64,000 nucleotides of DNA from Gemmatimonadota bacterium (lineage in GTDB: Bacteria > Gemmatimonadota > Gemmatimonadetes > Gemmatimonadales > GWC2-71-9): NCBI GenBank assembly GCA_003221005.1, contig QHTZ01000074.1, positions 1 to 64,000 on the forward strand, given 5' to 3'. The notes under the pieces are model-generated. The model ran no database searches. It saw nothing but the letters and a program-made list of their open reading frames with translations, and was not told the DNA's origin. This document shows positions 12 to 3,691 of the stretch, piece after piece. Each line of letters opens with the position of its first letter. The stretch's first letter is position 1. Both the position numbers and the translations under genes were made by a program.

Positions 12-887
12 GTGAGCCACGTTCTCGCCCTGGGACTCGTGGCGCTCGACTGCGTGGTCCGCGCCTGGCGGATCCAGCTCGCGGTGTGGGCAGCGGGCGG
101 GCGATTGGGTTTCCAGGACGCTGTGCGTCTCAACCTATATGGAGAAGCCGCCTCGACGCTCACGCCAAACCGCCTCGGCGGGGAGCCGGCTCGATTCCTC
201 GGGCTCAACGAGGCGCGCGTCCGACCGGTCACGAGTCTCGTGGCCATCGGCGTCGAGGTGGCCGCGGAATGGCCCGTGTTCATGTTGCTGGGTGGTGCGT
301 TGATCGCGTACTACGTGCCCGACTGGCAGACTGAGGCGCGGCACTGGCTGCGGCGCCACCGCGCCGGTGAGCTCGTAGCCGTTGAGCTCATCGCGCTGCT
401 CGTGCTCGGCGTCATCTATTTGCTGCAGCGCATGGTACGCTCCGGGATGATCCGCCACCGGGTGCGACGCCAGTGGCGCGTCGCCTGGGCGCACGTGCGC
501 CGCGCCCCCTGGTGGCTGCTCGGCGCCGGTGCCGTGCTCACCGTGGTCAGCATCGCCGCGCGCGCCCTTATCCTGCCGGCGCTCGTGTGGGGCGAGCCGC
601 ACCCGCCCTTCGGCCAGATGTTCTTCGGGGCGCTCACCCTGATTCACGCGCCGTTGTTCCTGCCGCTGCCGTCCGGGGGCGGCGGAGTCGAGGTGGCGTT
701 CCTGTCGGGGTTTGCCGGGGATTTCGGCGCGCGCCAGGTCACGCTGCTGTTGCTGTGGCGGTTCTACACGGCCGTGCTGCTCACTATTCTGGGCGGCTAC
801 GCGCTGGTCCGCGGCGTTGGCTACCGGGCGGCGACGGAGCTCTTGAAGATCGGATGGTTCCGCGGACACAAGGAGAAGCGGGAATGA
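12..887 (+). CDS. Lysylphosphatidylglycerol synthase TM / flippase-like (UPF0104) membrane protein; may be 5'-truncated
   Basis: Multi-TM protein with TPxxxGGEP, PxPSGGGGVE and LLWRFYT motifs typical of the family. Confidence 0.75.
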   Translation: MSHVLALGLVALDCVVRAWRIQLAVWAAGGRLGFQDAVRLNLYGEAASTLTPNRLGGEPARFLGLNEARVRPVTSLVAIGVEVAAEWPVFMLLGGALIAYYVPDWQTEARHWLRRHRAGELVAVELIALLVLGVIYLLQRMVRSGMIRHRVRRQWRVAWAHVRRAPWWLLGAGAVLTVVSIAARALILPALVWGEPHPPFGQMFFGALTLIHAPLFLPLPSGGGGVEVAFLSGFAGDFGARQVTLLLLWRFYTAVLLTILGGYALVRGVGYRAATELLKIGWFRGHKEKRE

Positions 888-1426
888 CGGGACCGAGGCT
901 GCCGCCGCTCACGCCGGAGGAGGCTGCTCCCGAGGTGCGGCCCATTTTCGACACGTATCTGAGGGAGCGCGGCAACATCCCCAACATGTTCCGCACCGTC
1001 GCGGTGCGCCCCAAGCACCTCCAGACGATGATCGCGCACTTCCGGACGGTCATGAACGAAGGAACGGTGCCGCCCCTGTTGAAGGAGCTCCTGTGGGTGC
1101 GGATCTCCCACCTGAACGGCTGCCGCTACTGACTCAACTCACACACCGTCTTGGCAAGACGGCACGGAGCGAGCGAAGCGCTGCTGGACGCGTTGCAGGA
1201 CCGCGGCGCGCCGACGGCGCGCGCTGCGCTCGAGCCCGGGTGGCGCGCGGCGCTCGACTACGCGGACGTCGTGCACCGCACGGGGCACGACGTATCCGAC
1301 GAGCTGTACCGCCAGGTGGCGGGTGCCTGGGATCAGGGGCAGATCGTTGAGATCACGCTGGTGATCGGAATGGCGGAGTACTTCAACCGGTTCAACAACG
1401 CGCTGCGGGTCGAACCGACGAAGTGA
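884..1426 (+). CDS. Carboxymuconolactone decarboxylase/AhpD-like protein, probable selenoprotein (UGA 1130-1132 read as Sec83)
   Basis: ATG 884 overlaps the upstream stop (ATGA) and follows AGGAG. ORF-track pieces 473..1132 and 1151..1426 share a frame; readthrough gives LNGCRY-U-LNSH, matching the CMD CxxC...H motif; C-terminus QIVEITLVIGMAEYFNRFN is CMD-like. Confidence 0.8.
1146..1162 (+). promoter_or_regulatory. Putative bacterial SECIS stem-loop
   Basis: Perfect stem CCGTCTT/AAGACGG with GGC loop; first loop G (1153) is 21 nt after the UGA. Confidence 0.65.
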
Positions 1427-1440
1427 GCGGACCGCGAGAG

Positions 1441-1773
1441 CTAGGCCTTGGGCGCCGGTGTGATCGCCACGAGCAGCACCGTGCGCTCGAGTGCCTGCTC
1501 CACACCGTGGGGGACGCCCTCGGGTGCCAGGATGAGATCACCGGACTGTGCTTCAATCGTCTCGTTTCCCAGCACGAACCTCGCCTTTCCGCTCACGACG
1601 AAATAGAATTTGTCGGCTCCCGCGTGCGCGTGGACCTTCTGCGTCTGCCCGGGCTCGAAGCAATTGAGCCCGACGAGCAGGCGCCCGGAGCGGAAGCAGT
1701 CGAGCTTGACTGGCGTGTCGCCCGCGAACCGGGCGCGGGTCGGCAGCCGCTGCAGCAGATCCTGAGCATTCAT
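1441..1773 (-). CDS. Cupin domain protein
   Basis: HAHxxxDKFYFVVSG and GDLILAPEGVPHG cupin motifs; ATG 1773 preceded by AGGA. Confidence 0.8.
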   Translation of the reverse strand: MNAQDLLQRLPTRARFAGDTPVKLDCFRSGRLLVGLNCFEPGQTQKVHAHAGADKFYFVVSGKARFVLGNETIEAQSGDLILAPEGVPHGVEQALERTVLLVAITPAPKA

Positions 1774-1825
1774 GGTTGATTCCTGGCTTGAGACCGACGG
1801 CACTCGCACCGAACTGGCGGGAGCG

Positions 1826-3235
1826 ATGAGCGCGACGCGCATCGAGCGTGATCCCCTGGGCGAGCTGCCGGTCCCGGCGGACGCCCTCTACGGGATCCAG
1901 ACGGAGCGCGCGCGCCACAACTTCCCGATCTCGCAGCTCCTGCCGCTCGCCCCGTTTGTGGACGCCGTCGTCTGGATCAAGAAGGCGGCGGCGCTGACCC
2001 ACAAGCGGACCAAGCGTCTCGACGCGAAGCTCGCCGACGCCATCGTGCAGGCCGCGGACGAGGTGCTCGGGGGCGCGCACCGCGAGCACTTCGTAGTGGA
2101 TCCCTACCAGGCGGGCGCGGGCACCTCGCACAACATGAACGTTAACGAGGTCATCGCCAACCGGGCGAACGAGTTGCTCGGGGGCCGGCGCGGGGAATAC
2201 CGGCCCGTCCATCCCAACGATCACGTCAACATGGCGCAATCGACGAACGACGTGATCCCGACCGCGATCCGTCTCGCCGCCCTCGCCCAGCTCCCCGCGC
2301 TGCGCGACGCCGTGGAGCGCCTCGCCCGGGCCTTTCTCGGGCAGGGTCGGGCATTCGACGCGATCGTCAAGTCGGGCCGCACGCACCTCCAGGATGCCAC
2401 GCCGATCCGCCTGGGCCAGGAGTTCACCGCATACGGCCACGCCATCGAGCGGGGCGGCGACCGGATCGTGCACGCCGCTGACGCGCTGCGGGAGCTGGGG
2501 ATCGGCGGCAGCTCGGTCGGGACCGGGCTCAACGTGGAGCCGCAGTACCCGGATCTGATGGTGAAACACCTGCACGAGATCACCGGGCTCGAGCTCAGGG
2601 AGGGGAAGGATCTCGTCGAGCTGATGCAGTCGCTGGGAGACATCGCGGCGCTCTCCGGGGCGCTGCGCACCTACGCGGTGGACCTGGGGAGGATCGCGAG
2701 CGATATCCGCCTGCTCGCATCGGGTCCTCGCACAGGCCTCGCCGAGATCACCCTGCCCGCCGTGCAGCCCGGATCGAGCATCATGCCGGGCAAGGTGAAC
2801 CCGTCGATCGCCGAGATGGTGAACATGGTGTGCTACCAGGCGATCGGGAACGACGTGACGATCGCCACGGCAGCCGAGGCGGGACAGCTCGAGCGCAACG
2901 TGATGATGCCCGTGATCGCGCACAACCTCCTGTTCACGATCCAGATCCTCGCCAACGCGAGCCGTGTGTTCGCGGAACGCTGCGTCGAGGGCATCGAGGC
3001 CGACGGGGCGCAGTGCGCATACTGGCTCGAGCGGAGCCCGGCGATCGTCACCGCGCTGGCACCGCGCATCGGCTACGCGCGCGCGGCCGAGCTCGCCAAG
3101 GAGGCGGTGGCGAAGAACGTGAGCGTACGCCAGCTGGTGCGCGAGAAGGGCCTGCTCACGGACAAAGAGATGGACGCGGTGCTGGACCTGCGGGCGATGA
3201 CGGAGCTCGGGGTTCCGGGCGAGCGGCGGCGGTAG
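1826..3235 (+). CDS. aspA: Aspartate ammonia-lyase / class II fumarase
   Basis: GSSIMPGKVNP signature, HPNDHVNMAQSTND, KSGRTHLQDATP; aspA versus fumC not firmly resolved. Confidence 0.8.
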   Translation: MSATRIERDPLGELPVPADALYGIQTERARHNFPISQLLPLAPFVDAVVWIKKAAALTHKRTKRLDAKLADAIVQAADEVLGGAHREHFVVDPYQAGAGTSHNMNVNEVIANRANELLGGRRGEYRPVHPNDHVNMAQSTNDVIPTAIRLAALAQLPALRDAVERLARAFLGQGRAFDAIVKSGRTHLQDATPIRLGQEFTAYGHAIERGGDRIVHAADALRELGIGGSSVGTGLNVEPQYPDLMVKHLHEITGLELREGKDLVELMQSLGDIAALSGALRTYAVDLGRIASDIRLLASGPRTGLAEITLPAVQPGSSIMPGKVNPSIAEMVNMVCYQAIGNDVTIATAAEAGQLERNVMMPVIAHNLLFTIQILANASRVFAERCVEGIEADGAQCAYWLERSPAIVTALAPRIGYARAAELAKEAVAKNVSVRQLVREKGLLTDKEMDAVLDLRAMTELGVPGERRR

Positions 3236-3274
3236 GGTGTCGTCGGAGGACACACTCTCTTCGGGGGAACACTC

Positions 3275-3691
3275 ATGAACTGGATCGTGGCGGGGCTCAT
3301 CGCGGGCGTCGGCGCGTTTCTCGCCGACTGGGTCATGTGGGGCAAGGTGTTCACGAAGGGGATGGAGGCATACGGCACCATGCCCACCTCGCCCGAGGAA
3401 GTGAAGAAGATGATGGGACCGAACCTTCTCAAGTCCGGGGTGCTCGCACTGCTCTTCGGCGTGTTGCTGGCGTGGTTCTACGGACGGCTGAAGGGCGGGC
3501 TGTGGGTGCAAGGCGGCCCGCTCGCCGGTATGGAGTTCGCCACGATCCTGTGGCTGCCCACCATCGCCGTTCAGACCATCGGCAACGGTATCTGGTACGA
3601 CAAGGTCCGGCGTTTGAACAATGCGACCTTCTGGTCGTGGCTCGTCCGGATGAACGTGGCAGGGCTCCTCGTGGGGGCGTTCGTCAGATAA
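3275..3691 (+). CDS. Hypothetical membrane protein (about 4 TM, possibly DUF1761-like)
   Basis: Hydrophobic segments, GGGGGA RBS-like site, typical codon usage. Confidence 0.6.
   Translation: MNWIVAGLIAGVGAFLADWVMWGKVFTKGMEAYGTMPTSPEEVKKMMGPNLLKSGVLALLFGVLLAWFYGRLKGGLWVQGGPLAGMEFATILWLPTIAVQTIGNGIWYDKVRRLNNATFWSWLVRMNVAGLLVGAFVR

Follow-up and report, generated by a model that had tools for sequence, protein, structure and literature searches.

The window analysed here is a 64,000-nucleotide stretch of DNA from a soil Gemmatimonadales-type bacterium, and positions 884-1426 on its forward strand very probably constitute an intact gene for a predicted 180-residue AhpD-like thiol/selenol oxidoreductase of the carboxymuconolactone decarboxylase (CMD) superfamily (COG2128/YciW-type), with selenocysteine (Sec) at position 83. 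This reading is supported by a single reading frame, the pairing of UGA with Cys among relatives, a hairpin that covaries and is tied to the UGA, a full set of Sec genes in the genome, the AhpD fold and the catalytic residues. As judged by sequence comparison, the TGA at 1130-1132 is almost certainly read as Sec, helped by the conserved hairpin. A first-pass annotation of the window had proposed a Sec enzyme of 180 amino acids at this place, and the TGA/Cys column, the hairpin covariation and the Sec machinery all support that prediction.

Reading frame and the in-frame TGA

Positions 884-1426 (+) form a single frame of 180 sense codons, from M1 at the start ATG 884 to K180. The frame is interrupted once, by the TGA at 1130-1132 (codon 83), and closes with the stop TGA at 1424-1426. 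The listing of open reading frames (ORFs) under translation table 11 cuts the gene in two: the first part runs up to 1132, and the second, which starts at a TTG, spans 1151-1426; the proposal that these two apparent ORFs are one frame broken by a single TGA held at exactly these positions. The active-site motif, as read from the frame, is C80-R-Y-U83-L-N-S-H87. The start codon overlaps the stop of the upstream gene (885-887) as ATGA, and GGAG-type motifs precede the start in many orthologs too. The features of the gene are as follows.

884-1426, + strand: coding sequence of the predicted AhpD-like selenoprotein (single frame; CMD and TIGR00778 matches; full-length orthologs)
870-875, + strand: Shine-Dalgarno-like AAGGAG, 8 nt before ATG 884 (read from the sequence; putative function)
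1085-1087, + strand: codon of E68, the AhpD proton-relay glutamate, 12 residues before C80 (22/22 homologs)
1121-1144, + strand: active-site motif C80-R-Y82-U83-L-N-S-H87 (Y82, position 83, S86 and H87 invariant)
1130-1132, + strand: in-frame TGA, predicted to be read as selenocysteine (U83; same column in 16/18 orthologs)
1146-1162, + strand: apical hairpin of the putative selenocysteine insertion sequence (SECIS), stem CCGTCTT/AAGACGG, loop GGC (conservation, covariation)

The read-through protein was searched against 61 related genomes, the window's own included, and 18 full-length orthologs were found (E <= 7e-33) with 43-82% identity to the window's protein. Extraction and translation of these genes revealed exactly one in-frame TGA in 16, always at the U83 column, and none in the other two, which belong to the window's genus and carry TGC (G003) and TGT (G004) at that column. 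A sample of 401 genomes spread evenly over the phylum (E <= 1e-30) yielded 38 orthologs, 35 with one TGA and three with none. These counts include unpublished genomes, namely G020 among the 16 and G212 and G187 among the 35. The terminal stop varied among the 18 orthologs (TGA in nine, TAG in eight and TAA in one), which indicates that the gene truly ends at 1424-1426. A second Sec at the terminal TGA was considered and rejected because of these varying stops and because the Cys homologs end at the same residue.

In an alignment of the query with 21 proteins, picked from at least 120 full-length database homologs and spread over 43-82% identity, position 83 was Cys in all 21. E68, Y82, position 83, S86 and H87 were invariant in the 22 rows, while C80 was replaced by Thr in seven. 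Conservation downstream of the TGA equalled that upstream, with invariant residues on both sides. Since position 83 is invariant in the aligned homologs, Sec sits at an indispensable catalytic position. Homologs thus carry either Cys or TGA at position 83 throughout, and the earlier placement of the TGA at the second Cys of a CxxC...H motif was borne out by this comparison.

The stretch was also found in soil metagenome runs of 14 studies. Positions 1130-1132 were covered by contigs of three DNA runs from three studies, which listed no other letter there; the TGC or TGT that the first-pass annotation had named as a contrary result did not appear among them. This backing of the TGA as real is weak but consistent, and the best-matching run may be the source sample.

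Hairpin downstream of the TGA and selenocysteine machinery

The hairpin at 1146-1162 was found exactly as first described, with a perfect 7-bp stem and a G-led loop (CCGTCTT/GGC/AAGACGG; seven perfect pairs, 3-nt loop). It starts 13 nt after the UGA, its loop starts 20 nt after the TGA, and it encodes T-V-L-A-R-R in the helix next after the active site. In each of the 16 TGA-bearing orthologs the UGA is followed, at an unchanged distance, by a 7-bp stem with a GGC loop. In their ungapped alignment, standard pairs filled 99.1% of 112 pair cells, and compensatory double changes were found in three of the seven pairs (C-G/U-A at two, U-A/C-G at one), one of which links a GTC Val to GCC Ala change with a silent AGA to AGG change. 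Neither the covariation score nor the percentage paired was reached in any of 500 column shuffles, and pairing fell to 31-64% when the 3' partners were slid by one to three columns. In the two Cys forms the H-T-V-L-A-R-R peptide is unchanged, but it is spelled in common codons (CTG GCG CGG AGG; CTC GCC CGC CGC) that allow no hairpin. The hairpin is therefore kept with compensatory changes in the TGA forms and absent from the Cys forms, the reverse of the refuting pattern set out in the first-pass annotation, in which relatives would lack both UGA and hairpin. Because the structure is coupled to the UGA, it has the signature of a bacterial SECIS element, and it is this conservation of the TGA column, together with a covarying hairpin retained only where the TGA is retained, that makes the hairpin significant. 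An extended lower stem (columns 14-17 with 38-41) was also considered; it was seen in distant orthologs but is not conserved in the window's genus, its three variable pairs being unpaired in 4 to 8 of the 16 sequences, and it was rejected.

The unusual codons of this stretch (TCA, TTG, GCA and AGA) had been ascribed to constraint on RNA structure. All four were indeed rare among the 31 long ORFs of the window with high G+C content at third codon positions (GC3), which hold 13,015 codons: TCA made up 13 of 596 Ser codons (2.2%), TTG 89 of 1339 Leu codons (6.6%), GCA 82 of 1596 Ala codons (5.1%) and AGA 7 of 1188 Arg codons (0.6%). The explanation stands for TTG-GCA-AGA, which build the top of the hairpin stem. 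It fails for TCA, which lies outside the hairpin and has a third base that varies among orthologs, so that its choice is not explained by the structure.

The assembly (2.79 Mb, 141 contigs, 94% complete) contains the complete set of genes for Sec synthesis and insertion, each above its curated cut-off: selA (532.6 bits, contig C75), selB (310.7 bits, contig C114), selD (376.9 bits, contig C46:14499-15422, - strand) and one tRNA-Sec (82.5 bits, contig C36), whose anticodon was given as TCA by ARAGORN. None of these best matches lies on the window's contig (C88), in agreement with the earlier statement that the window holds no selA, selB, selC or selD. The selD gene has an in-frame TGA of its own at G-A-G-U-A-C-K and is thus predicted to encode a Sec-containing selenophosphate synthetase. 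TGA is the commonest stop codon, found at the end of 765 of the genome's 1248 long high-GC3 ORFs. No tRNA other than tRNA-Sec has a TCA anticodon, and tRNA-Trp has CCA; TGA has therefore not been reassigned in this genome.

RNAfold predicted two hairpins downstream of the selD UGA; the loop of one is GGUCU and lies 32 nt beyond that codon. No apex was shared between these and the hairpin of the AhpD-like gene, so these two genes yield no lineage-specific SECIS consensus. A genome-wide scan for TGA codons in coding-like GC3 context followed by a hairpin gave 107 candidates; it missed both this gene and selD and was discarded. Among the 51 tRNAs that ARAGORN found in the whole assembly there was no tRNA-Arg(UCU) for the AGA of the SECIS stem and no tRNA-His. 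The tRNA set of this 141-contig assembly is incomplete, and the missing tRNAs allow no inference.

By the standard bacterial mechanism, a ribosome with UGA 1130-1132 in its A site would meet the hairpin 13 nt downstream, whose G-rich apex would recruit SelB carrying Sec-tRNA(Sec), and selenocysteine would be inserted at position 83 in place of termination.

Fold, catalytic residues and alternative explanations

Profile searches, run with Cys in place of Sec, revealed a match to the Pfam CMD domain (PF02627; 47.3 bits, cut-off 23) and to the AhpD core domain (TIGR00778; 47.7 bits, cut-off 27.8). The AlphaFold2 model, based on a 22-sequence alignment, consisted of ten helices with a predicted local distance difference test score of 95.1 and a predicted template modelling (TM) score of 0.89. 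Foldseek matched it at TM 0.84-0.87 to Deinococcus radiodurans AhpD (6k40), 2prr, 2oyo, 3c1l and Streptococcus pneumoniae AhpD (6e8l), and at TM 0.80 to the CMD-family debrominase Bmp8 (6ohj/6ohi). A sequence search of the Protein Data Bank returned the same AhpD-core structures from E = 1e-11, with PA0269 at E = 2e-10 and Bmp8 at E = 6e-6. With a fixed offset of 32, residues E68, C80, Y82, U83 and H87 align with Glu36, Cys48, Tyr50, Cys51 and His55 of Pseudomonas aeruginosa PA0269; they likewise align with Glu118, Cys130, His132, Cys133 and His137 of Mycobacterium tuberculosis AhpD (PMC3141380). All five proton-relay residues are thus present, with the predicted Sec at the invariant second Cys position. 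Domain models, fold and relay agree with the original call of a 180-residue CMD/AhpD-like oxidoreductase with a CxxU site. The protein is most probably of the COG2128/YciW type. A gamma-carboxymuconolactone decarboxylase of the PcaC type was rejected: enzymes of that kind are described as having neither the CxxC motif nor the AhpD relay (PMC3141380), whereas this protein has CxxU and the relay, and gamma-CMD structures were weak fold matches (2q0t, TM 0.48; 2qeu, TM 0.42).

In the catalytic cycle proposed here, the selenolate of Sec83, tuned by the E68/Y82/H87 proton relay, would attack an oxidised peroxiredoxin or a hydroperoxide. C80 would then resolve the intermediate by forming a selenenylsulfide, to be reduced by a dithiol reductant of the cell. 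Sec83 is the expected nucleophile and C80 the resolving residue because in M. tuberculosis AhpD the exposed residue is the second Cys (Cys133), which attacks the oxidised cysteine of its partner and cross-links AhpC, while Cys130 is partly buried (PMC6626918).

Several results weigh against parts of this interpretation. In Burkholderia thailandensis AhpD the first Cys was reported to be the more important one (PMC6626918), and the division of labour between the two Cys positions is therefore not universal. The protein scored below the cut-offs of TIGR01926 'peroxidase-related enzyme' (62.5 bits against 81.8; residues 4-179, profile positions 1-176 of 178), of NF053654 'YciW-related (seleno)protein' (71.4 bits against 310) and of NF041238 'alkylhydroperoxidase-related (seleno)protein' (29.6 bits against 175). 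NF053654 was nevertheless the best full-length NCBIfam match (residues 5-177, profile positions 3-172 of 179). Since the score was below the cut-off for every full-length NCBIfam model that it matched, any assignment of a subfamily or a substrate is tentative. No peroxiredoxin or reductase gene was found among the neighbours of the selenoprotein gene, and the sole RNA contig (metatranscriptome X20) spans 1327-1570, which does not include the TGA. As a structure the hairpin is also ordinary, with a folding energy of z = 0.24 for a 66-nt stretch that 113 of 200 shuffles matched or bettered. In the window, which is 69% GC, 43 of 1315 TGA triplets on both strands (a chance rate of about 3%) precede a comparable hairpin, defined by a perfect 7-bp stem and a G-led loop 16-37 nt downstream of the TGA, within the numeric limits of bSECISearch. 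An Rfam scan of 800-1500 at a permissive E-value returned no SECIS family and only a chance long non-coding RNA match (E = 6.1).

That the TGA is a true stop, leaving a nonsense pseudogene, an assembly error or two small genes, would fit the two pieces given by standard ORF calling and the public gene calls that end at the TGA, but it is very improbable. The same TGA occurs in 16 of the 18 orthologs (at 43-77% identity) and in 35 of the 38 from the phylum sample, conservation is as high downstream of it as upstream, and no variant letter appears in contigs from three DNA runs, each of a different study. Moreover, translation of a separate downstream piece would need a TTG within the hairpin as its start codon, and that piece would be without half of the domain. 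Decoding of the TGA as a standard amino acid, by reassignment to Trp or Gly or by near-cognate readthrough with Cys or Trp, is about equally hard to credit. When selenium is limiting, low-level incorporation of other residues at Sec codons can occur in bacteria. Against reassignment, TGA is the commonest stop of the genome (765/1248) and ends both this gene and its upstream neighbour, the TCA anticodon occurs only on tRNA-Sec, and tRNA-Trp has CCA. The homolog column pairs with Cys and not with Trp or Gly, and a dedicated hairpin covaries with the TGA codon.

The main alternative accepts the AhpD-fold selenoprotein and differs in its role, as a selenol-dependent reductase of another small molecule (for example by Bmp8-like reductive dehalogenation) or of another protein disulfide; we regard this as possible, if rather unlikely. 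Bmp8 is among both the fold matches (TM 0.80) and the sequence matches (E = 6e-6), no peroxiredoxin gene adjoins the selenoprotein gene, and the cut-offs of TIGR01926 and of canonical AhpD (TIGR00777; 18.5 bits against 191.95) are missed. For most AhpD-like proteins, substrates are described as not known (PMC3141380). On the other side, the top structural matches (TM 0.84-0.87) are called AhpD or peroxidase-related, the AhpD proton relay is complete, and the genome holds possible partners in 10 matches to the peroxiredoxin domain (AhpC-TSA), one of them a likely selenoprotein. The preferred reading remains a peroxide- or peroxiredoxin-linked AhpD-like enzyme with a predicted Sec83.

The AhpC-TSA match in question lies at contig C44:3549-3920 (-), where the motif T-P-G-U contains the only in-frame TGA. 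From this sequence it is likely to be a TxxU selenoprotein, and it could conceivably be a partner of the AhpD-like protein.

Genomic context, evolution and relation to known selenoproteins

Upstream of the gene lies an LPG_synthase_TM membrane protein (12-887, +). Downstream there follow a convergent Cupin_2 protein (1441-1842, -), a class II fumarase/aspartase (Lyase_1 and FumaraseC_C; 1772-3235, +) and a weak DUF1761 protein (3275-3691, +). The cupin and lyase ORFs as listed overlap head to head by about 70 nt; because of this overlap, one of the two starts has probably been called too far upstream. A class II fumarase/aspartase was found within 1.5 kb of the gene in 14 of 17 ortholog loci and an LPG-synthase-type membrane gene in seven of 17. 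Synteny was rejected as a functional clue, since neither gene suggests a redox partner. In the window and in G003, G002, G009 and G033 the ortholog follows the membrane gene on the same strand. In two genomes of the window's genus, G005 (locus L029) and G006 (locus L031), it lies at ~600-3540 on the strand opposite both flanking genes, in the order membrane gene (+), AhpD-like gene (-), fumarase/aspartase (+), which looks like a local inversion of a single gene.

With the Sec/Cys column masked, a maximum-likelihood tree was built from 48 rows (18 genome orthologs and 30 database proteins). It interleaves Sec with Cys forms and requires seven changes, of which well-supported branches force at least four. 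The database rows are Cys by construction, Sec forms being truncated in databases, and the tree has a midpoint root only, so the direction of change is not claimed. Each Cys form examined had recoded the former hairpin with ordinary codons. It may be, with about even chances in our estimate, that the Gemmatimonadota proteins form a Sec-dominated AhpD-like subfamily of their own, systematically truncated in annotations of metagenome-assembled genomes (MAGs) and with repeated Sec/Cys switches within about 75-82% identity. The placement of this subfamily outside the current NCBIfam (seleno)protein models would follow from the scores of all full-length models, which lie below cut-off. If true, the clade would be a compact natural series for the study of Sec/Cys exchange and SECIS decay. 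Among the weaker, paralog-level matches to the query in the genomes of relatives, 12 of 40 hold one in-frame TGA (for example G019:C73, G020:C309, G045:C2 and G023:C8), and these TGAs suggest that further AhpD-like selenoprotein paralogs may exist in the order.

Database relatives of full length carry Cys; they are annotated as 'carboxymuconolactone decarboxylase family protein [Gemmatimonadales bacterium]' or, in JGI, as 'uncharacterized peroxidase-related enzyme', which is the wording of the TIGR01926 name. Six of the matches listed, at 82-88% identity, extend over just 45% of the query. Each of them breaks off after ...C-R-Y, and the majority have spurious N-terminal extensions. As the partial relatives all end there, gene callers evidently truncate the Sec forms; the expectation that they would break this gene was confirmed both by the table-11 listing and by the public calls of relatives, which stop at the TGA. 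In one further database relative, P0061 (103 aa), the first 60 residues are followed at once by the last 43, with the active-site region missing altogether. Either an error of assembly or gene calling or a deletion variant may account for it. The main value of the present result is one of annotation, a single 180-residue selenoprotein taking the place of truncated calls. Because public calls go no further than the TGA, annotations understate the redox gene content of soil Gemmatimonadota MAGs. The gene also offers a clean comparative case of SECIS constraint, in which the same peptide is encoded by the rare TTG-GCA-AGA where there is a UGA and by common codons where there is Cys.

AhpD-like selenoproteins were known to the first-pass annotation as existing, and the CxxU family has indeed been on record since 2005. 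The Sargasso Sea study of Zhang, Fomenko & Gladyshev (2005) reported 27 AhpD-like CxxU selenoproteins under COG2128 and, separately, a 'CMD domain-containing protein' group with CXXU, and it described the bacterial SECIS element as a stem-loop that directly follows the UGA on its 3' side and has a G in its small apical loop (PMC1088965). The Global Ocean Sampling (GOS) survey of 2008 counted 299 selenoproteins and 902 Cys homologs in 'AhpD-like 1' (COG2128), and 70 selenoproteins and 207 Cys homologs in 'AhpD-like 2' (pfam02627) (PMC2398784). A 2026 review lists 'AhpD-like protein, TIGR01926, CxxU' (PMC13188914), and BSepDB holds an AhpD-like family page. The string 'Gemmatimonad' had no occurrence in the main text of that review or of the BSepDB paper, whose supplements may list the lineage, and a literature search on Gemmatimonadetes, selenocysteine and SelD found nothing related.

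With the COG2128 'AhpD-like' family the present gene shares the CMD/AhpD domain, Sec at the second CxxC position, a single Sec in each protein, a small apical loop with a G shortly after the UGA and many Cys homologs, and DR_1765 of D. radiodurans (6k40), the top match in the structure comparison, is itself described as COG2128/YciW. It differs in scoring below the TIGR01926 cut-off, which means that it is not a formal member, and in coming from soil Gemmatimonadales-type bacteria, whereas the surveys were marine. The 'CMD domain-containing' and 'AhpD-like 2' groups, compared here by description, have the CMD hit and CxxU in common with it and are defined by the Pfam domain alone. NF053654 and NF041238 are, like the present gene, AhpD-type and allow Sec, but its scores lie far below their cut-offs and it belongs to neither. 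M. tuberculosis AhpD and PA0269 have the same helix-turn-helix active site and the same relay of Glu, Cys, His or Tyr, Cys and His, with C-A-Y-C in PA0269 and C-R-Y-U here at the same spacing. Both are Cys enzymes of low sequence similarity to this protein, in which the second Cys is replaced by the predicted Sec and whose gene has no adjacent ahpC. General knowledge of selenoproteins is unchanged by this gene, which belongs to a long-known kind of selenoprotein and represents a missed annotation, not new biology.

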